NCBI GenBank assembly: GCA_003246295.1 | Contig: QKAS01000053.1 | Span: forward strand, 46,948 to 110,947 | DNA from: Clostridia bacterium | Lineage (GTDB): Bacteria; Bacillota; Clostridia; Lachnospirales; Lachnospiraceae | Direction: 5' to 3' | DNA length: 64,000 nucleotides | In this document: in pieces, positions 47,436-63,897 of the stretch | Layout: the number at the start of each line of letters is the position of its first letter | How positions within the stretch are numbered: position 1 is the first letter of the stretch | Notes under the pieces: generated by a model | Database searches by the model: none | What the model was told of the DNA's origin: nothing | The model's input: only the letters and a program-made list of their open reading frames with translations | Position numbers and translations under genes: made by a program

Positions 47436-47440
47436 CAGGT

Positions 47441-47589: not shown

Positions 47590-47628
47590 AGACAGAAGGC
47601 AATTTTTATAGCTTATCTGTCTTTTTTT
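47590..47628 (+). terminator. hairpin plus T-run inside the par/mob intergenic region
   Basis: agacag ... ctgtct stem followed by TTTTTTT. Confidence 0.45.
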
Positions 47629-47718
47629 GTACCTATTTTTACAGACCAAAGGCTGTAAATAAACCGGGGTCTTAGGGATGGAATCCCTAACAAGATAAGG
47701 GTGCGTCAGTACTCGATA

Positions 47719-47748
47719 GGATTTCGCATTGCGAAATCCGTATCTTGC
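47719..47748 (+). promoter_or_regulatory. candidate oriT: 10-bp perfect inverted repeat followed by a nick-like TATCTTGC
   Basis: GGATTTCGCA t TGCGAAATCC (47719-47739) then gTATCTTGC; lies about 80 nt upstream of mobC-relaxase. Confidence 0.45.
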
Positions 47749-47829
47749 AAAAAATCTCAGCACTTATCTTTAGGTCAAAGTGTAAAGGACTTAAGGCACG
47801 TAAAAAAATTCAAAGGAGGAGATTTAAGT

Positions 47830-48165
47830 ATGGGAAAGAAGAAAGTAAGTATAGCGAGGCAAAATAGAACATTTCGTTTATCGAAATCGGAACTACAGAA
47901 ATTAGAGGAGGGTGCAAAGGCGGCGGGAATGTCGGAAAGTGAATATGTCAGACATTTAATTTTGCATGGTGGTGTTGACACAGATTATATCCGTGATCGG
48001 CAAAACATTATAAGACAGATAACAGGAGTTGCTACGAATGTAAATCAGGCTGCAAAGTGGGCAAATGAAAATAAGTATATTCCACAAAGCAGAATTGATC
48101 AGATGTGTATGCAATTAGGTGTGATTTTAAGTTTGTTAAAGGAGCTGATTCAATTATGGCGATAA
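47830..48165 (+). CDS. mobC: MobC-family relaxosome accessory protein (RHH N-terminus)
   Basis: 111 aa from MGKKKVSIARQNRTFRLSKSELQKLEE...; GVATNVNQAAKWAN motif typical of MobC; AAAGGAGGAG RBS; overlaps relaxase start. Confidence 0.8.
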   Translation: MGKKKVSIARQNRTFRLSKSELQKLEEGAKAAGMSESEYVRHLILHGGVDTDYIRDRQNIIRQITGVATNVNQAAKWANENKYIPQSRIDQMCMQLGVILSLLKELIQLWR

Positions 48166-49940
48166 CCAAGATTATGAATATAGGAGCTGGAAAGAAGGGC
48201 AAAATCACAAATCATCTGAAAAATGCGTTAGATTATATAATGAATGAGGCAAAGACAGAAAGTGGAGTTCTGGTGGGCGGGTGGAATTGTGTCCCAAAGC
48301 TTGCTTTTGAACAGATGGTGGGAACAAAAGAATTGTATGGAAAGACAGGCGGAAGGCAGGGATATCATATTGTGATATCCTGTCCGCCTGGAGAGGGAAC
48401 TCCAGAGCAGTTATTGGAATTAATGAAGGAATTTGCACAGGAGTTTTTAGGAGAGGATTATGAGGCGGTGTATAGCGTTCATTCTGATAAGGAACATTGT
48501 CACGGGCATTTGGTTTTTAACAGTGTGAATATGAATACTGGTAAGAAATATGAATATAAAAAAGGTGATTGGAAATATGAGATTCAGCCGATTACCAATC
48601 GTCTTTGTGAGAAATATGGATTATCTATAATGCCAGCGGAGTATAGTAAAGATCCAGTAAATATGAATCGAAAGCAGTGGGAGAAAGAGAAATCTTGGAG
48701 TGAATTTATTGAAGCAGATGTGAAATATTGCCGTGGTGTAGCGGAGGATTATGAACATTTTCTTTATCTGTTGGAAGAATTGGGTTATGAGGTGAAAAAG
48801 GGAGCTCATCTGGCAGTAAAAGCAGAGAAGATGAAGCGTTTTCGTAGACTGGATACGATTAATGAAGAATATTCCAAAGAAAATCTGGAAGCATTCTTTA
48901 CAAAGGGAAGTTTTGCCTTTGAAACACCGAGAGTATTAACACCTGATGTAAAATATTTAATTAAGCCAAAGAATCTCTATCAGCAGAAGTTCTATGCCAA
49001 GCTCTACCGTATGCGTGTTGTTGAAAAGTGTCGTTTTCAATATAAGTCAGCTAGATTTAAAGAGGATTTGGAACGGATGCATATGTTACAAGAGGAGTAT
49101 CTGTTTCTGAGAAGAAAGGATATTAATGGTGTTGCGGATATTGTAACCAAAATTGAATTAGCAGAATTTGATATTAAAAAAATAACCGAGAAGCAGAAAA
49201 CATTGTATCAGGAGCGAGCAGATTTAAAGAGGAAATGTATGACGGGTAATAATATTTTAGACTTTTATACTTCTGAACCTGAATATCGAAAGCAGTTGGA
49301 AGATATTAAATTGGAAAAGAAGAAACTTCAAGGTGAAAAACATATAGCGGAACGTTGCTTGAAAGAAAGTCTTTATGTTGGATTGTTGGTTCCAGAGAAT
49401 ATTGAAATTGGTAATATTTATGAGATTGAAGTGCCGAAGAAACCTTGGTATTTGTGGAAAGAGGAAAGTAAAATGCCGGAAGTAAAAAGGGCGGTTGAAG
49501 TTGCTGCTATTGTTGAGGAAGAAACGGTAGAATCTTTTGAGATGAATACTTTCGATGTGGAATTGGAACCTGATGAAATTATTTCTTCTCACAATGAAAC
49601 GATAGAGGCTATAGAAGAAACAAAAGTATTTGATATTAAAGGTATATCAATGTTTGATGAAATTGAGAAAGCGGTTTACGGGGATGTCGAGCCACAGATG
49701 ACGGTAGTTACCAAGGAAATTTATAAATCTATGACGGATATGGAAAAAGCTGAATGGATTGGCATAGATGGAAATGATGTATATGGGTCAATGAAACGAT
49801 TCCATGAAAAAATGACATCGATTGGTATCTCTTATAAATACAGTTCGGATGAAACAGAAGAGTTTTGTAGATTAGAAGAAATTTGTAGAAAGGAATCAGA
49901 TAGGTCAAGATTTTATAGGAATACAGAGAGAAGCAGGTAG
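48156..49940 (+). CDS. relaxase/mobilization nuclease (MobA/VirD2-type relaxase domain) with long coiled-coil/acidic C-terminus
   Basis: N-terminal relaxase domain with 3-His motif HSDKEHCHGHLVFNSV; start at ATG 48156 (MAITKIMNIG). Confidence 0.85.
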   Translation: MAITKIMNIGAGKKGKITNHLKNALDYIMNEAKTESGVLVGGWNCVPKLAFEQMVGTKELYGKTGGRQGYHIVISCPPGEGTPEQLLELMKEFAQEFLGEDYEAVYSVHSDKEHCHGHLVFNSVNMNTGKKYEYKKGDWKYEIQPITNRLCEKYGLSIMPAEYSKDPVNMNRKQWEKEKSWSEFIEADVKYCRGVAEDYEHFLYLLEELGYEVKKGAHLAVKAEKMKRFRRLDTINEEYSKENLEAFFTKGSFAFETPRVLTPDVKYLIKPKNLYQQKFYAKLYRMRVVEKCRFQYKSARFKEDLERMHMLQEEYLFLRRKDINGVADIVTKIELAEFDIKKITEKQKTLYQERADLKRKCMTGNNILDFYTSEPEYRKQLEDIKLEKKKLQGEKHIAERCLKESLYVGLLVPENIEIGNIYEIEVPKKPWYLWKEESKMPEVKRAVEVAAIVEEETVESFEMNTFDVELEPDEIISSHNETIEAIEETKVFDIKGISMFDEIEKAVYGDVEPQMTVVTKEIYKSMTDMEKAEWIGIDGNDVYGSMKRFHEKMTSIGISYKYSSDETEEFCRLEEICRKESDRSRFYRNTERSR

Positions 49941-50003
49941 AAAACAAGGAATTTTTAACTGTGAATTGAGTAATAAAGTTGTAATTAGAATTATTTATAG
50001 AGG

Positions 50004-50045
50004 ACCATGATTATTTTAGTATTGAAATACTAAAATAATCATGGT
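50004..50045. repeat. near-perfect 42-bp palindrome overlapping the R-M operon promoter
   Basis: Arms 50004-50022 and 50027-50045 (acCATGATTATTTTAGTAT tgaa ATACTAAAATAATCATGgt). Confidence 0.9.
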
Positions 50046-50050
50046 ATAAT
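50022..50050 (+). promoter_or_regulatory. near-consensus extended -10 sigmaA promoter for the R-M/defence operon
   Basis: TTGAAA (50022-50027), 17-nt spacer, TGgTATAAT (50042-50050); the -35 lies at the palindrome centre. Confidence 0.6.
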
Positions 50051-50074
50051 ACTCACATGATTGGAGGTGCCTTT

Positions 50075-51655
50075 GTGGATAATAAGATATTAGATGGAAT
50101 CAATCTATTATATCAGCGAGGAATAACATCAAGAGAAGAATTACTTGTAGAATTCTTGCGAGTAAAGATGACTCAAAAGTTTGTAAAAAAGAATACGAGT
50201 GTTGATGTTCTTTTTTCTAAGATGAAAGAAGTGACAGAGCCAGAGCTAGGAATATACAATGCTGACCGCATGGACTTTCAGAATATGTTTGCTGCATTTG
50301 CAGATGCAAGTGCTATAGAATTTGTTACTCATATTTATAAAGAGGATAGAGGCGGAAGTGTCGTTAGTCCTAAATGCTTGACAGACTATATCGGAGCAAG
50401 AATTCAGCAGATAAGTCCGAAGAATGTTTTAATAACAGAAGCGGAAAAGCATTTACATGGTTTGAAAGAATTAGTGGATGTATGTGCGGGTAATGTTACG
50501 CTTACAAGTCAAAATAAAATGTTTTATCTATTGCTACAGATGATATTTGAAGGTCAGGCTAATGTTACAGTTAGACATATTTCGATTTATACAGATTTAC
50601 TTGTGGAAGATAGGTATGATTATATATTTTGTTTGCCGATTTTTGGATGTAAAATTAATGATGTGGCAGATATCTTCTTTACAAGAGATTCTGATGGAAT
50701 TGCATTACAGAATTTGCTTCAGTATTTAAGTGAAGATGGAAGTATAGATTATATTTCTCCAGCGAAATTATTATTCTCAGGAATGGGATTTGATAAACTT
50801 AGAAAGTTAGTCGAAGAAAGTTATTGGTTGGAAGAGCTGGTCATTTTACCAGATGGACTATTTAGACCATGGACGGCAATAAAGACCTATCTTATTTCAA
50901 TAAGTAAAACAAAGAGGGATAATATTTTAATTGGTTCATTAGAAATCAAAAAAGATTGTTTTCAATTTGAAGAGAAAAGAGATATATCCAGTATAGAGTT
51001 CAATAATCATGAAGATTGGAGAATTGAACTGCTTTTATCAGATGAGAATGAGTGCTTACAACAGTTTAAAACATCAGAGATTCCGAAGAAAAAACTAAAA
51101 GATTTGGCAGAGATTTTTCGAGGAAAGTCTATTCTAAAGAAGGATGCCATGGTTGGGGATATAGCTGTTTTGAATATTAGTAATATTGAAGATGGAGAAA
51201 TCAACTATGATGATCTTGAGACAATCCGAGAAGAAGAGCGTAAGATTAAGCGATATGAACTTTTTCAAGGAGATGTTGTTTTATCCTGTAGAGGAACAGC
51301 AATGAAGACGGCTGTTTTTGAGAAGCAGGAACAAATTGTGATTGCTTCTTCAAATATTATTGTCATCAGACCAGGTAAAGAAATATTGGGAGAATACATT
51401 AAGATATTCTTTGATACTCCAGTTGGAAATATGATGATAAAGAGCTTTCAAAGAGGAAGCACTGTGATGAATATCAATCATACGGATATTATGGAAATGG
51501 AAGTACCATTGCTTCCTTTAGAAAAGCAAGAAGAGATGGTAAGTACTTATAATGAGGAACTGAAAAAATATAAACAGACCGTTTTAGAAGCAGAAAAAAA
51601 GCTAGAGCAAACAAAAAATCAAATATATAAAGTGATACAGGGAGGAAATATATAA
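50075..51655 (+). CDS. HsdM-like domain with degenerate SAM-binding and catalytic motifs, fused to a single HsdS-type target recognition domain
   Basis: Collinear with the neighbouring HsdM, but DPCCGSGGMF -> ITEAEKHLHG and ANPPFN -> CLPIFG. C-terminal TRD plus conserved helix (LPLLPLEKQEE...). GTG 50075 behind GGAGGT preferred over ATG 50057. Confidence 0.7.
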   Translation: MDNKILDGINLLYQRGITSREELLVEFLRVKMTQKFVKKNTSVDVLFSKMKEVTEPELGIYNADRMDFQNMFAAFADASAIEFVTHIYKEDRGGSVVSPKCLTDYIGARIQQISPKNVLITEAEKHLHGLKELVDVCAGNVTLTSQNKMFYLLLQMIFEGQANVTVRHISIYTDLLVEDRYDYIFCLPIFGCKINDVADIFFTRDSDGIALQNLLQYLSEDGSIDYISPAKLLFSGMGFDKLRKLVEESYWLEELVILPDGLFRPWTAIKTYLISISKTKRDNILIGSLEIKKDCFQFEEKRDISSIEFNNHEDWRIELLLSDENECLQQFKTSEIPKKKLKDLAEIFRGKSILKKDAMVGDIAVLNISNIEDGEINYDDLETIREEERKIKRYELFQGDVVLSCRGTAMKTAVFEKQEQIVIASSNIIVIRPGKEILGEYIKIFFDTPVGNMMIKSFQRGSTVMNINHTDIMEMEVPLLPLEKQEEMVSTYNEELKKYKQTVLEAEKKLEQTKNQIYKVIQGGNI

Positions 51656-53157
51656 TGGCAGATGTTACATTAGGATTTGAAAATCAGTTGTGGGATATGG
51701 CAGATAAAATGAGAGGAAGAATGGGTGTTAAAGATACAGAATACGGAAATGTTGTGTTAGGTCTCATTTTCTTGAAATATATCTCTGACAGTTTCGAAGA
51801 AAGATATAATGAGCTTCTAGAAGAAGGAGATGGATTTGAAGAAGACAGAGATGCCTATGCAGAAACGAATGTGTTTTTTGTTCCGCCTTCAGCAAGATGG
51901 GATTTTATTAAAAAGAGTGCAAAATTACCGACTATTGGACAGATCATTGACGATGCAATGATTGCGATAGAGCGAGAAAATAAAACATTAAAGGGAGTTT
52001 TACCTAAAACTTATGCAAGGCAAGAACTTAATAAGCAAGTGTTGGGAGAACTGGTTGATTTGTTTTCTTTTAATCTTGGAAGCAAGGAAGCAAAAGCGCA
52101 GGATATCCTAGGTAGAGTCTATGAATACTTTCTAGGAAACTTTGGTTCTACGGAAGGGGAATATTATACTCCACCATCAATTGTTCAGTTGTTAGTAGAA
52201 ATGATTGAGCCATATGAAGGGCGTGTCTACGATCCCTGCTGTGGAAGCGGTGGTATGTTTGTACAATCTGCAAAATTTGTAAAGGCTCATGAAGGAAAGG
52301 TAGATAATATCCATATTCACGGGCAAGAATCTATATCTGAAACCTGGAGACTTTGTAAAATGAATCTAGCCATTCGTGGTATTGATGGAAATCTTGGGCA
52401 GGAAAATGCAGACACCTTTGGGAATGATCAACATAAAGGACTAAAAGCTGATTATATTTTGGCAAATCCACCATTTAATATCAAGGACTGGGGAGCATCA
52501 AAGCTTACAGATGATGTGCGTTGGAAATATGGAATGCCACCAGAGGGAAATGCAAACTACGCATGGATAGAGCATATTATTAGTAAATTGTCACCACGTG
52601 GAACGGCAGGATTTGTACTTGCAAATGGATCTATGAGTACTGCGCAGAAGCAAGAAGTAGAAATTCGTAAAAATATTATCGAAGAAGGTAAATTGGTGGA
52701 TTGTATTGTTGCACTACCTTCAAATCTATTTTATAACGTGACTATACCAGTTTGTCTGTGGTTCCTATCAAGAAAAAGAGATAATCGTAAAGATAAAATA
52801 CTGTTTATTGATGCAAGAAAAATGGGTGTTATGGAAACCAGAAAACATAGAATTCTCGAAAATGAGGAGATCCAAAAGATTTGTTCGACATATCATTATT
52901 GGAGAGATGGAAAAGAAGAATATAAGGATGAACAAGGATTTTGTAAATCCGCTAGCTTGGAAGATGTTAGAAATACAGGAGATTATATTCTTACTCCAGG
53001 TAGGTATGTTGGCATTGAAGAGCAAGAAGAAGATGGGGAAGTTTTTGAAGTAAAAATGGGAAATTTAAAAACTGAACTATTTAGCTTGTTTCAGAAAAGT
53101 CATGAATTGGAAAAGGAAATAAAATTAAGATTAGAGGCACTAAAGAATGAAGGGTAA
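51655..53157 (+). CDS. hsdM: type I restriction-modification system methyltransferase subunit
   Basis: HsdM_N region, motif I DPCCGSGGMF, motif IV NPPFN; TAATG junction with the upstream gene. Confidence 0.95.
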   Translation: MADVTLGFENQLWDMADKMRGRMGVKDTEYGNVVLGLIFLKYISDSFEERYNELLEEGDGFEEDRDAYAETNVFFVPPSARWDFIKKSAKLPTIGQIIDDAMIAIERENKTLKGVLPKTYARQELNKQVLGELVDLFSFNLGSKEAKAQDILGRVYEYFLGNFGSTEGEYYTPPSIVQLLVEMIEPYEGRVYDPCCGSGGMFVQSAKFVKAHEGKVDNIHIHGQESISETWRLCKMNLAIRGIDGNLGQENADTFGNDQHKGLKADYILANPPFNIKDWGASKLTDDVRWKYGMPPEGNANYAWIEHIISKLSPRGTAGFVLANGSMSTAQKQEVEIRKNIIEEGKLVDCIVALPSNLFYNVTIPVCLWFLSRKRDNRKDKILFIDARKMGVMETRKHRILENEEIQKICSTYHYWRDGKEEYKDEQGFCKSASLEDVRNTGDYILTPGRYVGIEEQEEDGEVFEVKMGNLKTELFSLFQKSHELEKEIKLRLEALKNEG

Positions 53158-54079
53158 CATTAATATTGTATTTGATACAAATTCAATTAAAAAAATTAAT
53201 GATATAGATTATAATTTGTTTGAATTTAATAAAACATTTTTAATAACTGATGCATTTATTACTGGAAATAATATAGAAAATATTCATCTATATATTCCGC
53301 AGATATGTATTGAAGAGCTTTTAATTCAGTATGCAGAAGAATACAAATCTTGCAAAGATATTGTGGATAAGCAATTTGATGAATTAATAGTTGAAACAAG
53401 TAAATTAGGTTGGGATTTGACAATTAGCAAAAATGATGATTTGAATTTTAATGATTATCACAAAAAAATGAAATTATTTTCCGATGAATATATTGAGAAG
53501 TATCAAAATTTAAAAATAATAAATAATTGCAGTGAAAAAAAATTCTCAGAAGTAATCAATAGAGCAATGTTTCGAAAAAAGCCCTTTTTTTCTGGGAGAT
53601 ATAGACAGAAGGATTTTAGCGATGCAGGCTTTAAAGATGTTATTTTTTTAGAAAGTATTAAAGAATATTTTCAAAATCACAATGAAGAAATTATTATTAT
53701 TACTGGTGATGAGATGCTTCTAAGCATAAATACTTTTAAAGAATTCAACTCTGAAAAAGTTCAAATATTGAAATTTGAAAAGGGGGATGAGTTAAAAGAG
53801 TATTTGTGTCAAAAATTAGACATAGTAGATTTATCGGAACAGTATTTGTTTTGTAAGGATCAATATTTCATAGAAAATATTGAAAAAGTATTAAATTGTA
53901 AGATAATAAATTCTGCTATTAATATTGATAAAAAAGAGGAAGATTATATTTTTTATGAAGTTGAGTGCTTGATAGAGAGAAATGAATCGAGAGAAAATAT
54001 ATATGTGCGATTAGATGAGGTTTTTAATTTTGATGAAATATTATCTAAGGATACCGGTGAATCAATACATATTTGGTAG
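53147..54079 (+). CDS. PIN-like domain protein (DUF4935-like) embedded in the type I R-M operon
   Basis: 310 aa; acidic PIN-type positions IVFDTNS, CIEEL, FSDAGFKD, ITGDE; very AT-rich; 11-nt overlap with hsdM. Confidence 0.6.
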   Translation: MKGNINIVFDTNSIKKINDIDYNLFEFNKTFLITDAFITGNNIENIHLYIPQICIEELLIQYAEEYKSCKDIVDKQFDELIVETSKLGWDLTISKNDDLNFNDYHKKMKLFSDEYIEKYQNLKIINNCSEKKFSEVINRAMFRKKPFFSGRYRQKDFSDAGFKDVIFLESIKEYFQNHNEEIIIITGDEMLLSINTFKEFNSEKVQILKFEKGDELKEYLCQKLDIVDLSEQYLFCKDQYFIENIEKVLNCKIINSAINIDKKEEDYIFYEVECLIERNESRENIYVRLDEVFNFDEILSKDTGESIHIW

Positions 54080-54094
54080 AGAGGTGGAGAAAGA

Positions 54095-55264
54095 ATGCAA
54101 AATAGTGAAAAAGTAAAGCTTATGGATATCTGCACTATAAAATATGGAAAAGATCATAAGAAATTGGGCGAAGGAAATATTCCCGCATATGGGACTGGTG
54201 GAATATTTAGATATGTAGATCAATCAATTCATGATAAAAAATCAGTTTTAATTCCCAGAAAAGGAACTTTAACAAATTTATTTCTAGTTAATCCACCATT
54301 TTGGACTGTTGATACATTATTTTGGACAGATATTGATTTGAACTTAGTGGATCCAGACTATCTTTATTATAATCTAAAGATGAAAAATTTGGGAGATTTA
54401 AATGTTGGGACTGCAGTACCAAGCTTAACAACATCAATTCTAAATGAAGTAGAAATAGATTTACCTTCTTTATTAAATCAGAAGGAAATTGCGAAAACAT
54501 TAATATGTTTGGATAATAAGATTGAGGTAAATAAAAAAATTAACTATAATTTACTGCAACAAGCACAGTGCTTATTTAATTCATGGTTTGTTGAATTCGA
54601 ACCATTTGGCGGAATTGCTCCAGATAATTGGATACCAATGTTGTTGAAGGATGTTGTTGATTTTTCGAATGGATATGCATTTAGAAGTAAAGAACTTTTG
54701 ACTGCTCCTGAAGGAGAGTGTTACCATGTTTTTAAGCAGGGGCATATTAATCGTGGCGGAGGTTTTATTCCAACAGGAACAAAAAGCTGGTATCCAAGAT
54801 CAAGCACATTGAGTTTGCAAAAATATGTTTTACAAAAGGGCGATATATTAATGGCTATGACTGATATGAAAGACAATGTTGCGATACTTGGCAATACAGC
54901 TATCATGGGAGTAAATGACCAATATATAGTAAATCAACGCGTAGGTATTTTACGATGTAATGGAAAATTTGGTATTTCATATCCGTATATTTCTTTACTC
55001 ACAAATAGTAATGATTTCTTACAAGATTTACGTAGCAGAGCCAATAGTGGTGTGCAGGTCAATTTATCATCAAATGAAATTAAGGGCTCAAAAGTACTAG
55101 TTGCTCCTTCAAATATTAATATAAAATTCAATAATATTGTAGGTCCTCTTTTTGAAATGATGATTCAAAATGACCTTGAAAATTTACGATTGTCTGAGAT
55201 TAGGGACGTATTACTACCAAAGCTGATGACAGGAGAACTCAATATTTCAGAAATCAAGGTTTAG
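54095..55264 (+). CDS. hsdS: type I restriction-modification system specificity subunit (two TRDs)
   Basis: 389 aa; two TRDs separated by a central conserved helix (LPSLLNQKEIAKTL...) and a C-terminal LLPKLMTGEL helix. Confidence 0.9.
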   Translation: MQNSEKVKLMDICTIKYGKDHKKLGEGNIPAYGTGGIFRYVDQSIHDKKSVLIPRKGTLTNLFLVNPPFWTVDTLFWTDIDLNLVDPDYLYYNLKMKNLGDLNVGTAVPSLTTSILNEVEIDLPSLLNQKEIAKTLICLDNKIEVNKKINYNLLQQAQCLFNSWFVEFEPFGGIAPDNWIPMLLKDVVDFSNGYAFRSKELLTAPEGECYHVFKQGHINRGGGFIPTGTKSWYPRSSTLSLQKYVLQKGDILMAMTDMKDNVAILGNTAIMGVNDQYIVNQRVGILRCNGKFGISYPYISLLTNSNDFLQDLRSRANSGVQVNLSSNEIKGSKVLVAPSNINIKFNNIVGPLFEMMIQNDLENLRLSEIRDVLLPKLMTGELNISEIKV

Positions 55265-55314
55265 GGAACTAAATAATCGTTTAACTAAATATACATTTTG
55301 AAAGAAGGTTACGT

Positions 55315-56127
55315 ATGAAAATTCCAATATCGGATGCAATTATCATTGCTATATCTAACTTAATAGATGATGCACAAATTGAAACTAGGAAGCCAAGTCA
55401 TTATGATTTAGAAGAAGAGATAGTAAAATCTCGACTTCAAGGTGTTGATCCAAACAAGCAGGGAAAAAGTTTTGGTAAAGCAAAACGAATAAAAAGTATA
55501 CTATCTTGGGCAATAGAAAATGATAATGAGGCAGGTAGTAAGTTAGTTGAAAATATTATTAATTTGATACGTGGCAACGGCGGGTTCAGAGAAGATTCAC
55601 CTAACTATGTTGGTGAACATGCAATTGCTAATGCAATTGATGCATTTCAAGTCGAAGGAATTGCCATGGGAAGTGATGGTGTTTTGCTTCCACTTGTTAT
55701 TGATAATTTATCAGCGCTTGAGCAGAAGACAGCATTGATGGCATATGTGAATAGAGCAAGAAGAGGAGCTGAAGATGCTGCGCTTTTGGCAGGGACAAGT
55801 AAGGATTTATTAGAAGCAGTGGCAGCATATGTTTTGACGGAGAAATTTGGAGAATATTCAATAAGAGATAATTTTCCGACGTTATTGGGACAAGCATTTA
55901 TTTCCTTGGGGTTAGCAACACCACAGAATAAAAAAGTTGCTGGAGAACCAGTTCAAAAAGATTTGGAGCGGTCTATGTATGAAAGTGCATGTTCGATAAA
56001 TAAATTAAGAAACAAACAAGGAACGGGGCATGGGCATCCTTTTGTAACTACTTTGTCGAAGGAAGAAGGTAAGGTTGTAATCTCTATTATGGGAGCAATT
56101 GCAGAATATATGTTAGCGAAATTGTAA
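55315..56127 (+). CDS. Abi_C (abortive infection C-terminal) domain protein embedded between hsdS and hsdR
   Basis: C-terminal region with SKDLLEAV...NKLRNKQGTGHG motif characteristic of Abi_C as I recall it; N-terminal domain unrecognised. Confidence 0.6.
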   Translation: MKIPISDAIIIAISNLIDDAQIETRKPSHYDLEEEIVKSRLQGVDPNKQGKSFGKAKRIKSILSWAIENDNEAGSKLVENIINLIRGNGGFREDSPNYVGEHAIANAIDAFQVEGIAMGSDGVLLPLVIDNLSALEQKTALMAYVNRARRGAEDAALLAGTSKDLLEAVAAYVLTEKFGEYSIRDNFPTLLGQAFISLGLATPQNKKVAGEPVQKDLERSMYESACSINKLRNKQGTGHGHPFVTTLSKEEGKVVISIMGAIAEYMLAKL

Positions 56128-56140
56128 AGGAGGGGTTTGA

Positions 56141-59100
56141 GTGAAAAATAATTTCTGTGAATCACATCTAGAAGAAGCAACACTGGAATGGTTCCAAGAG
56201 CTTGGTTACGATACCGTTTTTGGACCAGAGATTTCACCGGAAGGAGATTATCCAGAACGTGAAGATTACAGTGAAGTTATTCTAGCAGAACGTGTAAGAC
56301 AAGCAATATCAGATTTTAATCCAGAGTTACCGGAAGAAGCGATTGAGGAAGCATATCGAAAGATAGCAGTGCCACAGAGTCCTTCTATGGTCATGAATAA
56401 TAAAACATTTCAAAAAATGATTACTGATGGAATAGAAGTATCTTATCGTCAAAACGACGGGACGATTCGTCATGTTTTAGCCAGAGTATTTGACTTTATA
56501 CACTGGGATAGAAATGATTTTCTAGCAGTGAATCAGTTTACTATTATTGAAAGTCGAATTGAGAAGAGACCTGATGTTGTTGTATTTGTAAATGGTATTC
56601 CGCTTGTAGTCATTGAGTTAAAGAGTGCGATTAATGAGGATGTGGATATTTCAGATGCCTATAATCAATTACAGACATACAAGATGTCAATTCCATCCAT
56701 GTTTACATACAATTCCTTTATGGTTATATCTGATGGAATTAACGCAAGAGCGGGTACGATTACTTCTGATGAAGAACGCTTTATGGCATGGAGAACAATT
56801 GATGGTGATGGTGTTGCTCCTTTGTCTATACCCCAGTTGGAAGTTTTGATAAAAGGGATGTTCGAAAGAGAACGATTCCTTGATATTATCAAACAGTTTG
56901 TACTATTTCAGACAGATGGAAAAGATACCTACAAGATTCTTGCAGGATATCACCAGTATCATGCGGTAAATAAAGCAGTAGAAAGCACTGTAAGAGCTAC
57001 CTCTCAAAAAGGAGATAGACGAATCGGTGTTGTATGGCATACCCAGGGAAGTGGAAAAAGTCTGTCCATGGCATTTTATGCTGGAAAACTTGTTATTAGT
57101 GAAGAACTGGAAAATCCAACGATTGTAGTGATTACCGATAGAAATGATTTAGATGACCAACTATTCTCGACCTTTGCGAAATGCAAAGATCTTCTTCGTG
57201 GAGAGCCAATACATGCAACAGACAGAGTGCATTTAAGGGAATTACTGAATAACCGTACTAGTGGTGGAATTATTTTTACCACAATTCAAAAATTTGCTCC
57301 TGAGAAAAAAACAAATAAGGGAGAAAATATTTTAACAGATGCTGGAGCTTATGTTTCAGAACCTTATGAATATAGTATAGCTGCTGAATCATCAGGAGAA
57401 TACAATACAGAGCCAGTTGTCCTGACCGAACGTCATAATGTCATCGTTATGGCAGACGAAGCTCACAGAAGCCAATATGGTTTTGGTGCTGACGTAATAG
57501 AAGATGAAGATGGAGCTGATGTAAAATATGGATACGCAAAACATATGCGTGCTGCATTGCCTAATGCTTCTTATATTGGATTTACCGGAACACCAATTTC
57601 ATTAACAGATAAAAATACAACAGCTGTTTTTGGTGATTATATTGACGTTTATGATATGACTCGTGCAGTAGAAGATGGAACAACAGTTAAGATTTTCTAT
57701 GAAAGCAGAATCGCTAAGCTTGAATTACCAGAGAATCTAAAACCTACAATTGATAGTGAATACGAAGATATCACAGAATATCAAGAAGAAACCCAGAGAG
57801 AGAAACTAAAGAGTAAATGGTCTCGTTTAGAAGCCATTGTAGGATCGCAAGAACGAGTTGGGCTGATTGCGAAAGATATTGTAGAACATTTTGAAAAGAG
57901 ACAAGCTGCACAGGAAGTTGCTGGTGGCAAAGCTATGGTTGTGTCTATGAGCCGTAGAATCGCCATTGACTTATATAATGAAATTATAGCGCTGCGTCCT
58001 GACTGGCACAGTGATGATTTGATGAGTGGTAAGATTAAAGTAGTTATGACGGGGTCATCCTCTGATCCAGTTGAATGGCAGAAGTTTATTGGAACAAAGT
58101 CTACAAGAGAAACACTTGCAAAACGTATGAAAGATGTAAAGGATGAATTACAGCTTGTTATTGTAAGAGACATGTGGCTTACTGGATTTGACGTTCCTAG
58201 CATGCATACTATGTATATTGATAAACCAATGCAGGGTCATAACTTAATGCAGGCAATTGCCCGTGTAAACCGTGTCTTTAAGGAAAAACAGGGTGGACTT
58301 GTTGTTGATTATATTGGGATAGCAGAAAACTTAAAAGATGCTTTGGCTCAATATACAGAAAGTGATAGAAAAACAACCGGTGTTGATACAGAAATGGCAG
58401 CATCTATCATGCTAGAGAAACTGGAATTGATAAAAGAATTATTGCATGAACATGACTACTCAAAATTCTTTACCGGAACGCCTAAAGATAAAATGCAGGC
58501 AATCATTGAAACCATGGATTTCGTTATTGGTCTACGTGAGGATGGCAAAAAAGAATATATGAAATATGTAACGGAATTATCCAGAGCATTTTCTTTATGT
58601 GCAACAACAGATGCTGCACAAACTATTAATGATGAAATAAGTTTCCACAAGGCTGTGAAGGTTTCTTTAATTAAGATGATTGAAGATACCAAGAAAAAGA
58701 AAACAGTTTCTCAGCTGGATAGTGAATTGAATCAGTTGGTATCAAAATCAATTTCATCAAATGAAGTAATCGATATATTTAGCGAAGTTGGTCTGAATAA
58801 GCCTAACATAGCGTTATTATCTGAGGAATTCTTGGAAGAAGTAAGGGGAATGAAGCAGAAAAATCTTGCGGTAGAGTTGTTAGAGCGTTTGCTAAAAGGA
58901 ACCATAAAGACATTTTCAAGGAGAAACCTTGTACAATCAAAGAAATTCTCAGAACTCCTTGAACAGTCTATTCATAAATATCAAAACCGTGCTATTGAAA
59001 CAACGCAGATAATAATGGAATTGATAGAACTTGCGAAGCAGATAACAGAAGCTGAAAAACGTGGAAAAGCATCAGGACTAACTGATGATGAATTAGCTTT

Positions 59101-59362
59101 CTATGATGCACTTGCAGACAATGAGTCGGCAAAAGAGATCATGGGCGATGACATTTTGAAACAGATTGCAAGAGATCTGACTTCTGCTATTAAAGGAAGC
59201 GTAACCGTTGACTGGTCAATCCGTGACAGCGTTCAGGCTAAGATGAAGATGGTAGTAAAACGATTGCTTAAGAAATATGGTTATCCACCTGATAAGCAGG
59301 AAAAAGCTGTTGAAATCGTAATGGAACAGACAAAACTTATGTGTGAGAATGAGGTGAATTAG
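56141..59362 (+). CDS. hsdR: type I restriction endonuclease subunit R
   Basis: 1073 aa; nuclease D...ELK motif ([18 protein letters not shown]), Walker A TQGSGKS, DEAH box MADEAHRSQ, helicase C motifs; GTG start behind AAGGAGG. Confidence 0.95.
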
Positions 59363-59367
59363 AATAT

Positions 59368-60720
59368 ATGAAACGTGTAGGAATGGGAAGTAGTAATCAA
59401 GAAATAGTTGAAGCACTGTCTCAAAATCTTGGTAACAGGAATGAAAATTTAGCAAGTTTTCTTACAATGCTTGATTATATTGACGGAAACTTTTCGATTG
59501 CTATTGATGGGAAATGGGGAAGTGGCAAGACTGTTTTTGTTAAACAAATTATTATGCTACTCAACTATTACAATAGTTTTTCAAATATCAAGCCATTAGG
59601 ATTACAAGCGGTCATTGAGAATAGAGGACTTAAATTGCATGACATTGTTTTACAAAATAATTTCGTGCCAGTTTACTTCAATGCATGGGATAATGATGAA
59701 CAAGATGATCCTACACTTTCTTTAATATTCTCAATAATTCAAGAGTATAACGGGTTCTCTAATGATACTAAGATTAAAAAAAGCATTGTAGAGAAAATAG
59801 CTGCTATTGTGGATGCAATTACACCGTGGAATAGTGGAAGCTTTTCTAAATTAGCTGAAACCTTTCAAGGAGATGATATCTTATTGCCGATTAAAAATCT
59901 TGAAAAAGCAAAAGAAATTGTCATGCTTTTGCTAGATGAGTTACTGGTTGAAAAGGGTGACAAATTGGTTATATTTATTGATGAACTTGATAGATGTAAT
60001 CCCATTTATGCAGTAAAGTTGTTAGAAAAGATTAAACATTTATTTGATGATGAGAGATTTATTTTTGTATTTTCAACTAACTTAGAACAATTGTCATTTG
60101 TAATTCAGAATTATTATGGCAGTAATTTTGCATCATATAGATATTTGGAAAAAATATTTGATGTAATGTTTATGATGAATGAAATCTCTATAGCAGATTA
60201 TATGAAATTGCAAGGAATTCCAAATGATTCTTATCATTTCCATTCAATATGCCATTATATGGCAAAACACTATTCATTTTCAATGAGAGAATGTAATAGA
60301 TATATACAGCAAATAAAGCTAGTATATGAGTATGCTATGAAACAAAGAAGTGGATTTTCGGATACTAATGGATATAATTTTACATTAATATTCTTTTTAC
60401 CAGTTCTGATAGCGGTGAAAATGCGAGATGTCATTGAATTTGTTAAAATTATTGATGGAAAAGGAAAAGATGTCTTTATACAGATATTGTGTAACGATGA
60501 TGAAGTAACTAAAAGAATAAAGAGATATTTACGTACAGGTGATCAAGTGAATATTTCGGATGATGAATATATTTTGCAAATGGGCGAGATATATGATGTT
60601 ATTTTTAATAATCTCGGATCTTCTGAATATCATGGTTCAAACATTGAATTGGATAGAAATGCAAAAAAATATCTAATGGATGTAGTTTCGCTGTTAAACA
60701 GAAAATTAAATTATGAATAG
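59368..60720 (+). CDS. KAP-family P-loop NTPase
   Basis: Walker A IDGKWGSGKT, Walker B VIFIDELDRC, insert typical of KAP; starts 5 nt after the hsdR stop. Confidence 0.75.
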   Translation: MKRVGMGSSNQEIVEALSQNLGNRNENLASFLTMLDYIDGNFSIAIDGKWGSGKTVFVKQIIMLLNYYNSFSNIKPLGLQAVIENRGLKLHDIVLQNNFVPVYFNAWDNDEQDDPTLSLIFSIIQEYNGFSNDTKIKKSIVEKIAAIVDAITPWNSGSFSKLAETFQGDDILLPIKNLEKAKEIVMLLLDELLVEKGDKLVIFIDELDRCNPIYAVKLLEKIKHLFDDERFIFVFSTNLEQLSFVIQNYYGSNFASYRYLEKIFDVMFMMNEISIADYMKLQGIPNDSYHFHSICHYMAKHYSFSMRECNRYIQQIKLVYEYAMKQRSGFSDTNGYNFTLIFFLPVLIAVKMRDVIEFVKIIDGKGKDVFIQILCNDDEVTKRIKRYLRTGDQVNISDDEYILQMGEIYDVIFNNLGSSEYHGSNIELDRNAKKYLMDVVSLLNRKLNYE

Positions 60721-60728
60721 GAGAAATG

Positions 60729-60947
60729 ATGGCTGACATTAAATATGAAATTGTAGAAGAAATCGGTGTACTATCCGAAAATGCAAAAGGCTGGAGGAAA
60801 GAACTTAATCTTATCAGTTGGAATGATGGAGCTCCTAAGTACGATATTCGTGACTGGGCTCCTGAGCATGAGAAGATGGGCAAAGGTACAACTTTGGCGA
60901 AAGAAGAAGTTGTTAAGTTGAAGGAACTTTTGAATACGTTGTTTTAA
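60729..60947 (+). CDS. YdbC-like PC4-fold ssDNA-binding protein (DUF2128)
   Basis: 72 aa MADIKYEIVEEIGVLSENAKGWRKELNLISWNDGAPKYDIRDW..EKMGKG closely resembles my recollection of Lactococcus YdbC; AGGAG 5 nt upstream of ATG 60729. Confidence 0.65.
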   Translation: MADIKYEIVEEIGVLSENAKGWRKELNLISWNDGAPKYDIRDWAPEHEKMGKGTTLAKEEVVKLKELLNTLF

Positions 60948-60981
60948 ACATTAAGGCATGTGATTACGTCGGGGAGATGTT

Positions 60982-61836
60982 ATGAATCAAAATAAAGTGA
61001 TTGCTTTTGAAAAAATTGATAATGCATATGATTTAAAAGCATTCCTTCAACACTATGGAGGAATGCGTGAAAACAAGGGATTCTTGCATCATTATACTTC
61101 GTTGTCAACGGTAATAAGTTTATTTAAAAATAGGACATGGCATTTATCACAAGCCTCTTGTATGAATGATATTTTGGAATTTACTAATGGCGATATAAAT
61201 AAATGGAATAAATTGTTTTTTACAAGCTTCATGCGAGAAGATGATGAAAATATTGGAATGTGGAGTATGTACGGTCAACCATGGAATAAAGGCGTAAAAA
61301 TAAGCATTCCAAAAAACATTGCCGTAGATTGGTTAACAAAAGAATATATAAGAGTTTTTGAAGTTGATTGTAGAACAAAAAGCACGAATGATGAAATAAG
61401 TGAGACCCTATATCGGCAGCCGTTCTTAAGTGCAGTGGCGTACGCAAATACAGATAGAATTAATCGAAAAAAAGAAGTTGAGGAAGTTAGGTATGGAACG
61501 GTTAGGAATTCTAATTTGGTAGAGTGTACTCGTGATCCTGTTCTAACTGGCTATATCAAAGATGAAGCATGGGCTTACGAGAAAGAAATCAGATTATGCA
61601 TTGAGTTCAAAAATGCAATAAACTGTAAGCGGATATCATTGAGCATACCGGATGAAGTACTCGATAATATAATATTAACTCCAAGTCCTTTATTTGAAGG
61701 TGATTTTATGCAGGAACTTAATCGAGAAATAGAACAAGTATTTAAAACTAAAGAAAGCCTATTTAAAGGAAAATTTCAATTACAAGCAAAATGTGATGAA
61801 TGTAACTATGTGAATTTGCAGCATCAATTATCTTAG
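60982..61836 (+). CDS. DUF2971-like protein
   Basis: N-terminal FLHHYTSLSTVISLFKN..W.LS....MND..EF resembles the DUF2971 signature; GGGGAG RBS. Confidence 0.45.
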   Translation: MNQNKVIAFEKIDNAYDLKAFLQHYGGMRENKGFLHHYTSLSTVISLFKNRTWHLSQASCMNDILEFTNGDINKWNKLFFTSFMREDDENIGMWSMYGQPWNKGVKISIPKNIAVDWLTKEYIRVFEVDCRTKSTNDEISETLYRQPFLSAVAYANTDRINRKKEVEEVRYGTVRNSNLVECTRDPVLTGYIKDEAWAYEKEIRLCIEFKNAINCKRISLSIPDEVLDNIILTPSPLFEGDFMQELNREIEQVFKTKESLFKGKFQLQAKCDECNYVNLQHQLS

Positions 61837-61924: not shown

Positions 61925-61953
61925 TTGACATTGCATAAAGTATGTCATACTAT
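61925..61953 (+). promoter_or_regulatory. sigmaA-type promoter for the AAA_21/RloB pair
   Basis: TTGACA (61925-61930), 17-nt spacer containing TGACAT/ATGTCA inverted hexamers, TACTAT (61948-61953). Confidence 0.55.
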
Positions 61954-61979: not shown

Positions 61980-63254
61980 ATGTTAATAATGTTTAAAGTA
62001 AAAAACTACACATCTTTTAAGGACGAAGCAATTTTAGATATGAGGGCGGCTTCTTATAAACAACATACAACACATTTATTAGAAACTTATGATGGAACAA
62101 AGCTAGTTAAGACCGCTGCTATTTATGGTGCAAATGCATCAGGAAAATCTAATTTTATTTCAGCTATGTTTTTCTTCGAAAAGTATATTTTTGAACAATT
62201 TATTACAAAGAATGAAGCAGAAGAGTATGATTTTTCGAGTAAGGATTTGGAAACAAGGTTGGAACCATTCCAGTTATCAGAAGATAACAATGGGGCTTCT
62301 GAGTTTGATATTATGTTTTCGTGTAATGATAAAACTATCCAGTATGGCTTTGAATGTACGTCAGAAGAAGTAATAAGTGAATGGTATTACATTAATGATA
62401 AGAAGGTATTTGAACGCAATGGAAGTCAGGTTACGTTTGGAAAATCTTATGAAAAATATATTAAGGAATTTACAAAAGTTCCAAAAGAACGACTGTATTT
62501 ATCAGTATTAGAATACTTTCTTGGTGAAAAGGAAAAAGAAATTATTTTATATGATTTCGTGGAATTTTTCCAAAAAGAATATGATGTATTTTTGGAACTT
62601 TTCTTTGAATCAACAATCAAACATATTGCTGGTTTGGTAAGAATTAACGAACGTATCGTTAAGGATAAAAACTTTAGAAAGAAAGTCGAAAAGTATTTAA
62701 GCCAGATTGATGTTGGTATCAAGGGGCTGGATGTTCAGGTAAAAACAGTAGTTGATGAGAAAACTGGAAAAGAGAAAAAGCGTAAAACATTAAAGACAAT
62801 ACATGACATATATGATGATAATGGTTTGGTTTGTGGGCAAAAGGAATTCGAACTACCACAAGAGTCAACTGGAACATTACGTTTTTTAACATACATTCAG
62901 GAAGTTATCGAAATGACAGAAAGAGGAGGTGTGTTTGTTGTTGATGAAATTTCTGCAAGGCTTCATCCTTTATTGACAAAGCTAATTGTAGATATTTTTC
63001 AAGATAGCAAAAACACGAAAGCACAGCTGATTTTCACAACACACGATATCTCTTTGTTGAACAAAGAACAGTTTAGAAGGGATGAAGTGGTTTTTGTTGA
63101 TAAGAACCATAAAGGAGAATCATCTTTATATGCATTGTCTGATTTAAAGGTAAGAGATGATGCAACTTTTAATAAGGACTATTTGCAGGGTAAGTACGGT
63201 GCAATTCCAATCTTTAATTATGATGGAATTTTAGGCGGTGATGCGATTGGGTAG
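61980..63254 (+). CDS. AAA_21/ABC-type ATPase (RloA/AbiLi-like)
   Basis: Walker A GANASGKSN, Walker B VFVVDEISARLHP, TTHD His-loop; AGGAGG 7 nt upstream. Confidence 0.8.
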   Translation: MLIMFKVKNYTSFKDEAILDMRAASYKQHTTHLLETYDGTKLVKTAAIYGANASGKSNFISAMFFFEKYIFEQFITKNEAEEYDFSSKDLETRLEPFQLSEDNNGASEFDIMFSCNDKTIQYGFECTSEEVISEWYYINDKKVFERNGSQVTFGKSYEKYIKEFTKVPKERLYLSVLEYFLGEKEKEIILYDFVEFFQKEYDVFLELFFESTIKHIAGLVRINERIVKDKNFRKKVEKYLSQIDVGIKGLDVQVKTVVDEKTGKEKKRKTLKTIHDIYDDNGLVCGQKEFELPQESTGTLRFLTYIQEVIEMTERGGVFVVDEISARLHPLLTKLIVDIFQDSKNTKAQLIFTTHDISLLNKEQFRRDEVVFVDKNHKGESSLYALSDLKVRDDATFNKDYLQGKYGAIPIFNYDGILGGDAIG

Positions 63255-63897
63255 AACCATGTTATCACCATCCAGACAAAAAAATATAAAGAATACAAAC
63301 CTTGGACACATGATTTTATTTTGTGAAGGACTAACAGAAAAATACTATTTTGAATATTTTACCGACATAATTGAAAAAAATAAATTCAATGATGTTCGGA
63401 TCGAGATAGAATCAGCTGATGGTAATTCAAGCCGAGTTTTGAAGTTTGCAGATGAATATCTTGCTGTCGAAGATAATAATAGAAAATACAGTAATTATAA
63501 AAAGTATTTGGTGTTTGATTGTGATGCACCTCCAAATATACAGAAGGTTATTGATAAAATCTGCTTATCTGAAAATAGTTATGAAATGTTAGTTTCAAAT
63601 TACTTATTTGAGACGTGGTTATTAATGCATTTTGAAAATGTAACAGAAAAAATCTCTAAAGAACACACCTACAAGCGTTTAAGTGAGCATTTGGTAAATG
63701 AATACAAAAAAGCAAGTGCAGGTCTTATTAGAGAAATTATTCAAAATGGCAGTGTAGAAGAAGCTATGAAAAATGCTGAAAGTTTGGCAGAGAAGTATTC
63801 ACAAGAAGGAAAAAACATTTGCAATTCAATTGGAAAAATGAATCCATATACAAATGTTAATATATTAGTTGAGCAGCTATTGGCTGTAATAAGTTGA
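63238..63897 (+). CDS. RloB-like protein (Toprim-like; AbiLii-like)
   Basis: ILFCEGLTEKYYFEYF N-terminal motif and LVFDCD acidic motif; overlaps the ATPase gene by 17 nt (start could instead be ATG 63259). Confidence 0.65.
   Translation: MMRLGRTMLSPSRQKNIKNTNLGHMILFCEGLTEKYYFEYFTDIIEKNKFNDVRIEIESADGNSSRVLKFADEYLAVEDNNRKYSNYKKYLVFDCDAPPNIQKVIDKICLSENSYEMLVSNYLFETWLLMHFENVTEKISKEHTYKRLSEHLVNEYKKASAGLIREIIQNGSVEEAMKNAESLAEKYSQEGKNICNSIGKMNPYTNVNILVEQLLAVIS

Follow-up and report, generated by a model that had tools for sequence, protein, structure and literature searches.

Defence genes nested in type I restriction-modification (R-M), BREX, DISARM and Hma loci have been described under the principle of 'guilt-by-embedding'; type I R-M, BREX and DISARM loci often contain nested genes, many of which are defence systems, and 96.7% of embedded genes run in the same direction as their host (Payne et al. 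2024, bioRxiv 10.1101/2024.01.29.577857). One precedent for functional coupling in this setting is PrrC: its host type I R-M system keeps it inactive, and this block ends when the system is inhibited by a phage peptide (Payne et al. 2024, bioRxiv 10.1101/2024.01.29.577857). A precedent for regulation comes from an enteropathogenic Escherichia coli (EPEC) island that combines type I R-M with DarTG2: its first gene encodes RptR, a 9-kDa four-helix homodimeric autorepressor that binds palindromic TAGCTA repeats over the -10 box, is found in Gammaproteobacteria and is co-conserved with its site in many genomes (Zhang et al. 2025, PMC12255303). Here, a 64,000-nucleotide stretch of contig QKAS01000053.1 from a Clostridia bacterium (the window) is considered. 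It contains a type I R-M operon of nine co-directional genes, the first of which, g1, encodes a pseudo-methyltransferase fused to half of a specificity subunit. Taken in aggregate, the data make it likely that a mobilizable element here carries a type I R-M operon, with exchanged defence cassettes and with g1 as its autorepressor.

The comparison with RptR is close in arrangement and distant in protein. In both cases the gene is the first of a type I R-M operon with embedded defence, and a palindrome lies at the core promoter, with repression shown for RptR and predicted for g1. In contrast to RptR, g1 is a protein of ~530 aa derived from HsdM/HsdS, its 20-bp site covers the -35 box, it occurs mainly in Bacillota, and there is no homology between the two, which makes g1 an analogue and not a member of the RptR family. 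The C-proteins of type II systems likewise combine an operon-encoded DNA-binding dimer with a promoter palindrome that sets R-M expression, as is predicted for g1. These are small Xre-type helix-turn-helix proteins, usually encoded upstream of the nuclease gene and working as activator/repressor switches, whereas g1 has a wholly different fold and precedes the methylase gene. By analogy, g1 would be a functional counterpart of RptR and the C-proteins, unrelated to either.

A third comparison is provided by Esub1 (SpyM3_0890) of Streptococcus pyogenes, a homodimeric half-S protein of determined structure (PDB 8VSQ/8VSR; Muna et al. 2024, PMC11754733). A repressor-like role was proposed by its authors, who left its function and DNA site open, and the phage protein paratox (Prx) plugs the predicted DNA cleft of Esub1 at the RxΦxR helix (Muna et al. 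2024, PMC11754733).

The operon and its upstream signals are arranged as follows, with genes taken from the open reading frame (ORF) list and assigned with the profile libraries named.

50004-50045, no strand: predicted operator, a perfect palindrome with 20-bp arms, ACCATGATTATTTTAGTATT-GA-AATACTAAAATAATCATGGT (direct reading)
50022-50050, + strand: operon promoter, TTGAAA-17 nt-TATAAT with an extended -10 TG (11/12, top site of the region in the consensus scan)
50057-51655, + strand: g1, pseudo-methyltransferase plus target recognition domain (Pfam)
51655-53157, + strand: hsdM (Pfam, PADLOC)
53147-54079, + strand: PIN_12 (DUF4935) gene (Pfam)
54095-55264, + strand: hsdS (Pfam, PADLOC)
55315-56127, + strand: Abi_C-domain gene (Pfam)
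56141-59362, + strand: hsdR (Pfam, NCBIfam)
59368-60720, + strand: KAP-family P-loop NTPase gene (Pfam, PADLOC)
60726-60947, + strand: PC4/YdbC-like gene (Pfam)
60982-61836, + strand: DUF2971-domain gene (Pfam)

This layout agrees in most respects with the original prediction, which was made from the letters alone. Nine co-directional ORFs do occupy 50057-61836, each of the domains then named is recovered by Pfam together with PADLOC and NCBIfam, and the near-consensus promoter, TTGAAA-17-(TG)TATAAT, is the strongest match in the region. The first gene had been called a dead methyltransferase (MTase) fused to a target recognition domain (TRD), and this description is upheld both by the replacement of motifs I and IV and by a predicted fold of MTase plus TRD. 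The g1/hsdM junction, read directly in the sequence, is a TAATG with a 1-nt overlap; hsdM and the PIN_12 gene overlap by 11 nt, and the later gaps are 15, 50, 13, 5, 5-8 and 34 nt. The overlaps and most of the gaps are thus as first reported. The exception is the KAP/PC4 gap, given as 8 nt, which has this length only with the PC4 start one codon later, as in the public gene call, and is otherwise 5 nt.

The g1 ORF is 532 aa long, with a probable true start at the GTG at 50075, which is preceded by GGAGG. Its Pfam matches consist of a partial N6_Mtase match (profile positions 166-290 only) and one Methylase_S TRD, so that an N-terminal pseudo-MTase extension of ~340 aa precedes a single recognition domain. 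The SAM-binding motif I (xDPxxGxG) is replaced by LITEAEKHL.GL, which is invariant in the family. Motif IV is altered from NPPF to LPIF in the window and to (S/C)LP.FG family-wide. Neither of the motifs expected of an active gamma-class N6-adenine MTase (motif I, and motif IV as NPPF/Y) is therefore present in g1. The family comprises 404 homologues, usually of 525-530 aa and annotated solely as 'restriction endonuclease subunit S', and 22 members drawn from several phyla align with a mean column identity of 74%, with the TRD conserved too. Judged by this alignment, the loss of the catalytic motifs is a conserved substitution and not erosion. The possibility that g1 is an ordinary variable HsdS or a decayed gene was considered and set aside, as the protein is full length in >100 clusters and 74% conserved including the TRD.

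The AF2 model of g1 (pLDDT 78.5) consists of an MTase fold, a TRD and a 40-residue terminal helix (488-527). Its fold matches are a Vibrio type I MTase, CamA, M.TaqI and Esub1, the last with a Foldseek probability of 1.0. At the level of sequence, g1 residues 343-525 match Esub1 (PDB 8VSQ) with E=9.3e-34, ungapped through the RK.KRY helix. This helix corresponds to the RxΦxR 'insertion helix' of Esub1 that is occupied by paratox, and it is invariant in g1 as RK.KRY. The architecture of an Esub1-like half-S protein, a single TRD with an insertion helix and a C-terminal helix, is thus found in g1. The stand-alone form of ~198 aa is not, given the ~340-aa pseudo-MTase that g1 bears at its N terminus.

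The DNA directly in front of g1 contains the second element of the proposed pair. The palindrome in the window has the core TTTAGTAT-TGAA-ATACTAAA (~50015-50034) and is centred on the -35 hexamer. From 60 unique upstream sequences, the family consensus is TTTAGTAT-TGAC-ATACTAAA, with the -10 box 17-18 nt downstream; the -35/-10 arrangement is kept in upstream regions homologous to the operon promoter. A single copy of the inner motif, TAGTAT-N4-ATACTA, is present in the 64 kb of the window (50017-50032). When the region up to 220 nt upstream of g1 homologues was searched with at most one mismatch, this motif was found over the -35 box in 67/74 loci. The remaining 855 kb of the g1 loci contain only 5 matches, 3 of which precede, by ~39 nt, the leading gene of a co-directional block that includes g1, and 13 control loci without g1 (~157 kb in total) contain zero.

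Long palindromes are also compatible with a role in nucleic acid structure. One possibility would be that the palindrome works independently of g1, either as a cruciform or as a hairpin promoter on transferred single-stranded DNA after conjugation. The long perfect arms in several loci (17-22 bp), whose sequence is not conserved, are in keeping with this idea, as is the position of the site just downstream of the relaxase gene in the window and its closest relatives. In contrast, the 8-bp core is conserved in sequence and not in symmetry alone, most loci have arms of 8-12 bp, the motif is centred on the core promoter, and it occurs in chromosomal streptococcal esub1 loci and in many loci without a relaxase directly upstream. 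A purely structural role for the palindrome is accordingly considered highly improbable. Extended symmetric arms of 17-22 bp were seen in the window (50004-50045) and in loci L001, L002, L020, L030, L041 and L104 (such handles denote individual loci of the comparative survey). That symmetry is kept while the outer sequence changes may point to outer contacts that co-evolve, or to the formation of a hairpin or cruciform.

The streptococcal loci separate the palindrome from R-M genes. The exact motif TAGTAT-N4-ATACTA is located 35-40 nt upstream of the start codon of stand-alone esub1 in 3/3 divergent loci, at the following positions.

L103, 3961-3976: exact motif before stand-alone 198-aa esub1
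L104, 3950-3990: exact motif before stand-alone 198-aa esub1
L105, 1702-1717: exact motif before stand-alone 198-aa esub1

These palindromes overlap the -10 region, and one has perfect arms of 16-18 bp. Esub1 and g1 are thus alike in being half-S proteins with a dimerisation helix and in having TAGTAT-N4-ATACTA upstream of their genes. Unlike g1, Esub1 stands alone at 198 aa and has no M-like domain; its loci have no R-M neighbours, and the next gene is always ArAE_1 (aromatic acid exporter). As the stand-alone esub1 loci carry the palindrome, it tracks the TRD family and not the R-M context. This suggests that the esub1-exporter operon is autoregulated, with the palindrome as the predicted DNA target of Esub1. 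A second, weaker operator-like site occurs inside the esub1 coding sequence of two of these loci, ~445 nt in and at an equivalent position in both (L104 4447-4462, GGTATTGAAATACC; L105 2181-2196, AGTATCGAAATACC); the coding sequence may have produced it by chance, or it may serve as an auxiliary site.

The same loci bear on the alternative that g1 is a structural R-M subunit. Here, g1 would be a non-catalytic M- or S-like partner (compare M1M2S) or a decoy for anti-restriction DNA mimics, and the palindrome would be bound by something else or be a feature of the promoter. Consistent with such a role, g1 is translationally coupled to hsdM through the TAATG junction, hsdM is the next gene after g1 in 64/73 loci with room for it (5 of the other 9 being contigs that end early), and the g1 model also resembles complete M+S enzymes, namely the Ocr-bound type I MTase (7EEW) and PacII M1M2S. 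Against it, stand-alone Esub1 has the same palindrome upstream with neither an M-like domain nor an R-M neighbour, the TRD of g1 is conserved across phyla, unlike that of working specificity subunits, and a full two-TRD HsdS is already encoded in the operon. A structural or decoy function for g1 is therefore regarded as unlikely. A family of 163-177 aa was observed between g1 and hsdM in the clade with ~47% g1 identity (L055, L057, L061-L068, L072, L077; for example L061 11568-12074), and sometimes between hsdS and hsdR (L041 14355-14891, L076 14285-14818); its 14 occurrences gave no Pfam or PHROG match.

The reading preferred here, held with somewhat more confidence than doubt on the basis of sequence comparison, is that g1 is the operator-binding repressor of its operon. 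If so, g1 would dimerise via its C-terminal helix, as Esub1 does, and the two identical, conserved TRDs of the dimer would bind the symmetric TTTAGTAT-N4-ATACTAAA over the -35 box. In this arrangement g1 would close around the operator in the way that an M2S1 methylase closes around its target DNA, with the difference that no methylation follows. Occlusion of the -35 box would repress the single promoter and result in negative autoregulation, so that the R-M genes and the inserted cassettes would share one autoregulated expression level.

Several observations weigh against this proposal. The arms of the palindrome often reach 17-22 bp with an outer sequence that is not conserved between loci, a pattern that a hairpin or cruciform would explain no less well than simple protein recognition. 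The g1 clade of 40% identity (L081-L087) is without the motif directly upstream of g1. The 6+4+6 operator is also unlike classic type I bipartite sites, which have spacers of 6-8 bp. Binding and repression by g1 are predicted, and the operator could be bound by another factor. Co-transcription of the nine genes is likewise inferred from their spacing alone. Lastly, the Esub1 study reports no demonstrated DNA binding, and its HsdM binding experiments were inconclusive (Muna et al. 2024, PMC11754733).

Within the 40%-identity clade, an operator-like sequence, TAGTATTGAAATACTT, was observed elsewhere (L081 1465-1480, L082 1346-1361, L084 615-630), 39 nt upstream of a sigma-70-like gene. In these three loci the sigma-70-like gene is followed by a gene for a 1083-aa DEAD-box helicase and then by g1-hsdM-hsdS-hsdR.

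The R-M genes that follow g1 are of the expected kind. HsdM is intact, with Pfam matches to HsdM_N (1.9e-25) and to N6_Mtase across the full profile (3.5e-106), a PADLOC match to MTase_I (E=2.6e-218) and a retained NPPF motif in the alignment. HsdS is full-length at 389 aa; Methylase_S matches it in two stretches, corresponding to two TRDs, and the PADLOC profile Specificity_I covers residues 5-388 (3.8e-64). It is only 23-30% identical to the HsdS of otherwise near-identical loci. HsdR contains HSDR_N, SWI2_SNF2/ResIII, T1R_D3-like and T1RH-like_C domains (Pfam) and matches TIGR00348 with E=2e-183 (611 bits, cut-off 285). By gene content, hsdM-hsdS-hsdR is a type I R-M system.

The status of the remaining genes was addressed by comparing relatives annotated against the window proteins. 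In total ~100 loci were examined, of which 88 were collected through g1: 2 by exact look-up, 6 from genome contigs (single-protein scan) and 80 from metagenomes (alignment-based scan). The g1-hsdM-hsdS-hsdR backbone is conserved across the g1-collected loci. The sequences between its genes are not. The window and L003 share DNA homology of 90-95% identity at 48914-53121 (relaxase, g1, hsdM), 55242-59364 (Abi_C, hsdR) and 60709-60935 (PC4), and this homology breaks off exactly around PIN plus hsdS, around KAP, and for the whole of the sequence downstream of PC4. In L003 and L005, g1 is 95% and HsdR 98.5-99% identical to the window proteins, yet both loci have no PIN and no KAP gene, and after PC4 both encode a CBASS CD-NTase with E1/E2 in place of DUF2971. 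The Abi_C gene is present in L003, and unrelated genes occupy its slot in L001, L004 and L005; L001 and L004 have the same backbone with other inserts. Overall, for each of PIN, Abi_C, KAP and DUF2971 there are loci with 90-99% identity to the window in g1, hsdM and hsdR that lack the gene or have another in its place.

Across related operons among the 88 g1-collected loci, the hsdM/hsdS slot is empty in 25/41 and the hsdS/hsdR slot in 27/37. The filling of all three slots and the tail at once, as in the window, is rare among relatives, and the full gene set of the window was found in no second locus among the ~100. Other inserts in g1-type operons encode Fic, KilA-N, protein kinase, integrase, caspase and AAA_13 ATPase proteins. 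By far the commonest occupant of the hsdM/hsdS slot is the RhuM family (~335-370 aa), with 17 occurrences, 2 of them between g1 and hsdM (L021, L024, L026, L033, L037, L055-L066 and L075; for example L061 13511-14614). Downstream of hsdR/PC4, complete known systems are found as at a hotspot, for example CBASS (CD-NTase + E1/E2; L003 9994-12142, L005 19101-21594), a 365-aa gene with Prok-E2_A/JAB (L001 14643-17648, L004 10445-13505) and Hachiman (HamA + helicase; L093 7751-9676).

These comparisons bear on the idea of one integrated composite machine, in which HsdM/HsdS, with or without g1, would sense DNA and activate PIN, Abi_C and KAP, and in which all nine genes would be obligate. The tight or overlapping junctions and the single strong promoter are compatible with it, as are the constant position of the PIN_12 subfamily between hsdM and hsdS, the recurrence of PC4 after hsdR and the precedent of PrrC. 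In contrast, a gene set without a second example, near-identical backbones that lack PIN/KAP or swap Abi_C/DUF2971, mostly empty slots in relatives, and homologues of Abi_C and KAP that stand elsewhere without hsd genes indicate that the nine genes are not one obligate system, and a machine of this kind is considered improbable. The extra genes are very probably, for the most part, exchangeable cassettes.

The likely course is that independent defence cassettes were gathered and exchanged by recombination in the gaps between conserved genes: PIN_12 in the hsdM/hsdS gap, Abi_C/HEPN in the hsdS/hsdR gap, KAP and DUF2971 after hsdR, and an AbiL pair further down. The original prediction had offered two alternatives. 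The first, a stack of independent effectors sharing R-M regulation, is favoured for most of the extras (PIN, Abi_C, KAP and DUF2971 being lost or swapped), with PIN_12, PC4 and g1 as R-M-linked exceptions. It is for these three that the second, one functional module, survives; as a description of all nine genes it is improbable. The profile searches suggested with the original prediction (Pfam, PADLOC) gave a name to every domain, with no PADLOC match for PIN_12 or PC4. The neighbourhood test against hsdMSR divided the genes, with PIN_12 and PC4 linked to type I operons and homologues of Abi_C and KAP occurring outside them as well.

The architecture had also been described as no named system, and in this respect the description must be revised, as the locus matches the published pattern of embedded defence systems (Payne et al. 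2024). The hsdM/hsdS and hsdS/hsdR gaps are occupied by PIN and Abi_C respectively, both co-oriented with their host. The separability of embedded genes from their hosts is found for Abi_C and KAP, and not for the PIN_12 subfamily. KAP corresponds to PDC-S20, DUF2971 weakly to PDC-S31, and RhuM is among the embedded families. The locus differs from that survey in that PIN_12 and PC4 have no PADLOC model, and in its g1-type first gene and operator, neither of which appears in the main text of the survey. PDC-S20 is itself a candidate of that study, predicted only to be anti-phage (Payne et al. 2024, bioRxiv 10.1101/2024.01.29.577857).

Of the individual inserts, PIN_12 keeps a constant position. 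Only 12 protein clusters resemble the window protein, and in 5/5 independent contexts the subfamily is placed between hsdM and hsdS, where it overlaps or abuts hsdM: the window, L036 (35% identity), L089/L090 (51%), the Bacillus cereus group loci L091/L092 (35%) and L093 (38%). The acidic residues D10, E57, D159, D164 and D188 are invariant. The AF2 model (pLDDT 89) has the PIN protein Nmd4 as its best fold match, and for the C-terminal beta domain the fold search gave weak cystatin-like matches only. Searches of PADLOC, NCBIfam and PHROGs gave no match, and no antitoxin-like gene is found next to it. The lack of an antitoxin partner suggests control by the R-M proteins, and it is a reasonable inference, by analogy, that PIN_12 depends on them as PrrC does. 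PIN_12 shares with PrrC/RloC the placement of a putative RNase gene inside an hsd operon, the PIN_12 subfamily being found only there; it differs in having a PIN fold and not the combination of ABC ATPase and anticodon nuclease that characterises PrrC. An earlier survey recorded, in broad terms, couplings between PIN genes and type I subunits, and gave DUF4935/PIN_12 as mostly monocistronic (Matelska et al. 2017). In L091/L092 (6476-10047), hsdM-PIN_12-hsdS was observed with no hsdR in the next 7 kb, followed by DUF6037 and a Lamassu-like cluster (CTD7, MC3, LmuB_C).

The Abi_C and KAP genes have a wider distribution. The former, a putative AbiJ-like abortive-infection gene, matches Pfam Abi_C with E=2.5e-13 (50.4 bits against a cut-off of 24), and its protein has RNKQGTGH, a HEPN-type Rx4-6H motif, at the C-terminus; the AbiJ profile of PADLOC gives only E=0.003. 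Its plasmid homologues (45-49% identity) are lone 'abortive infection' genes. The KAP protein has a Walker A motif (GKWGSGKT) and a Walker B motif (IFIDELD), and it matches the PDC-S20 profile (PADLOC PDLC04959) with E=4.2e-45 and three further PDC-S20 models at 1e-19 to 1e-33. Plasmid homologues of KAP (32-33% identity) are not type I-linked; they lie beside partition genes or beside a methyltransferase + DEAD-box helicase pair, which is taken to be a type III-like R-M system. As the KAP and Abi_C homologues are only 32-49% identical, the plasmid contexts speak for the families and not for the exact genes, which tempers the cassette interpretation. In L003 (9504-9716) and L005 (~18610-18822), the KAP slot contains an ORF of ~70 aa with a CxxC...CxxC pattern and a good ribosome-binding site, and the difference at KAP is therefore a cassette swap. 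A simple insertion or deletion of KAP was rejected on the same evidence, the 225-nt 'spacer' of L003/L005 containing no KAP remnant and encoding the CxxC...CxxC ORF. With its two CxxC pairs, the small protein is zinc-ribbon-like.

PC4/YdbC is found directly after hsdR in at least 9 other loci, comprising L003, L005, L018, L025, L042, L093 and plasmids of Niallia, Clostridium estertheticum and Bacillus cereus. Its sequence and position point to an ssDNA-binding-like protein and to a tail gene that recurs in many unrelated type I R-M operons, on chromosomes as well as plasmids. These genes (73-78 aa) were located at L018 13641-13862, L025 17929-18165, L042 11188-11424, L093 6471-6692 and, in L099, L100 and L101, at ~5001-5225. 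A two-gene KAP-YdbC module was also considered and rejected, since PC4 stays after hsdR without KAP in L003, L005, L018, L025, L042, L093 and the plasmids. The PC4 gene has no PADLOC or NCBIfam match, and PHROGs gave only a generic 'DNA binding protein' family. The final gene of the block matches Pfam DUF2971 (E=7e-7, 30.9 bits against a cut-off of 22) and, weakly, PDC-S31 in PADLOC (best E=1.1e-5, with no stretch passing alone). Taken together, the PIN_12 subfamily and PC4/YdbC appear to be habitual R-M passengers, and by analogy with PrrC they may depend on the R-M complex.

Transcription signals inside the block were assessed with consensus scans, which do no better than chance on so AT-rich a sequence: 74 promoter-like sites were observed against 76 expected, and 7 terminator-like sites against 6.5. 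These scans were accordingly given no weight for or against internal signals. The absence of a hairpin-plus-T-run from the block, reported in the original prediction, holds only in the sense that none is conspicuous, as the scans do not discriminate here. Internal promoters may exist within the nine-gene block, which chance-level scans would accommodate. The shared orientation of the nine genes is unremarkable, because every large ORF from 40266 to the end of the window is on the + strand.

The surroundings of the operon are those of a mobilizable element. The features upstream and downstream are the following.

44318-49940, + strand: mobilization/partition module, encoding ParB-like, TnpV, actin-like ALP, hypothetical, MobC/NikA and MobA/VirD2 relaxase proteins (Pfam)
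61925-61953, + strand: promoter-like site TTGACA-17-TACTAT, ahead of the AbiL-like pair in a gap of 143 nt (consensus scan)
61980-63897, + strand: AbiLi-like ABC ATPase (AAA_21) and RloB/TOPRIM partner (AbiLii-like), overlapping genes (PADLOC, Pfam)

An rlmD-like housekeeping gene, of the tRNA/rRNA U5-methyltransferase kind, lies at 42701-44080, with the mobilization module right after it. Because the ParB, TnpV, ALP, MobC and relaxase genes directly precede g1, the operon is placed on a mobilizable element, which, by this gene order, is inserted after the rlmD-like gene. The order relaxase-g1-hsdM is also found in L001, L003, L004 and L005. The closest named relatives are Lachnospiraceae and Velocimicrobium metagenome-assembled genomes, and an identical locus is present in the public run SRR7216773. 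In L089, an unrelated PIN-containing R-M locus, a 153-aa fragment of an rlmD-like U5-methyltransferase was observed at 5647-6108, beside hsdM; the rlmD-like gene (the 42701-44318 region of the window, and L089) possibly marks a common integration site.

The island does not stop at 61836, as the AbiLi/AbiLii-like pair continues it. An ABC ATPase followed by an RloB/TOPRIM partner, the hallmark of AbiL, is present (PADLOC AbiLi E=8.2e-85; Pfam RloB E=7.2e-28), and by these matches the pair is a separate known two-gene defence system. The 143-nt gap before it contains no stable terminator (z = -1.25). An inverted repeat, TGACAT-N10-ATGTCA (61926-61947), overlaps the -35 hexamer of the promoter-like site.

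A broader possibility, advanced tentatively and with much more doubt than belief, is that g1 and Esub1 represent a new class of bacterial transcription factor assembled from components of type I R-M systems, in which a TRD dimer, alone or joined to a dead methylase, recognises TAGTAT-N4-ATACTA, and that g1 might double as an infection sensor. As g1 would mimic the DNA clamp of M2S1, it could be stripped from the operator by anti-restriction proteins of phages or plasmids, with DNA mimics such as Ocr and ArdA, or proteins resembling paratox, as candidates. If this were true, loss of g1 would induce the restriction enzyme and the PIN, HEPN and KAP effectors exactly when restriction is attacked.

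The interleaved architecture is in itself ordinary, one densely loaded example of the known hosting habit of type I R-M loci, although it draws attention to two unstudied R-M companions, the PIN_12 subfamily at hsdM/hsdS and PC4/YdbC after hsdR. No report linking PC4 to hsdR, and none of a g1-type controller, was found in the limited library consulted, which is not proof of novelty for either. It is the regulatory layer that matters, as the transcriptional control of type I R-M is barely described, with RptR (2025) the sole clear case found. The new part is the g1/operator pair, in which a known principle, operon-encoded control of R-M, would be carried out by an unexpected protein. The prediction is thus of a second R-M controller, unrelated to RptR and widespread, made from recycled R-M subunits and acting at an exact 20-bp site. 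The same prediction would offer Esub1, a protein that is structurally solved and targeted by paratox, a DNA target and a role in an autoregulated esub1-exporter operon.

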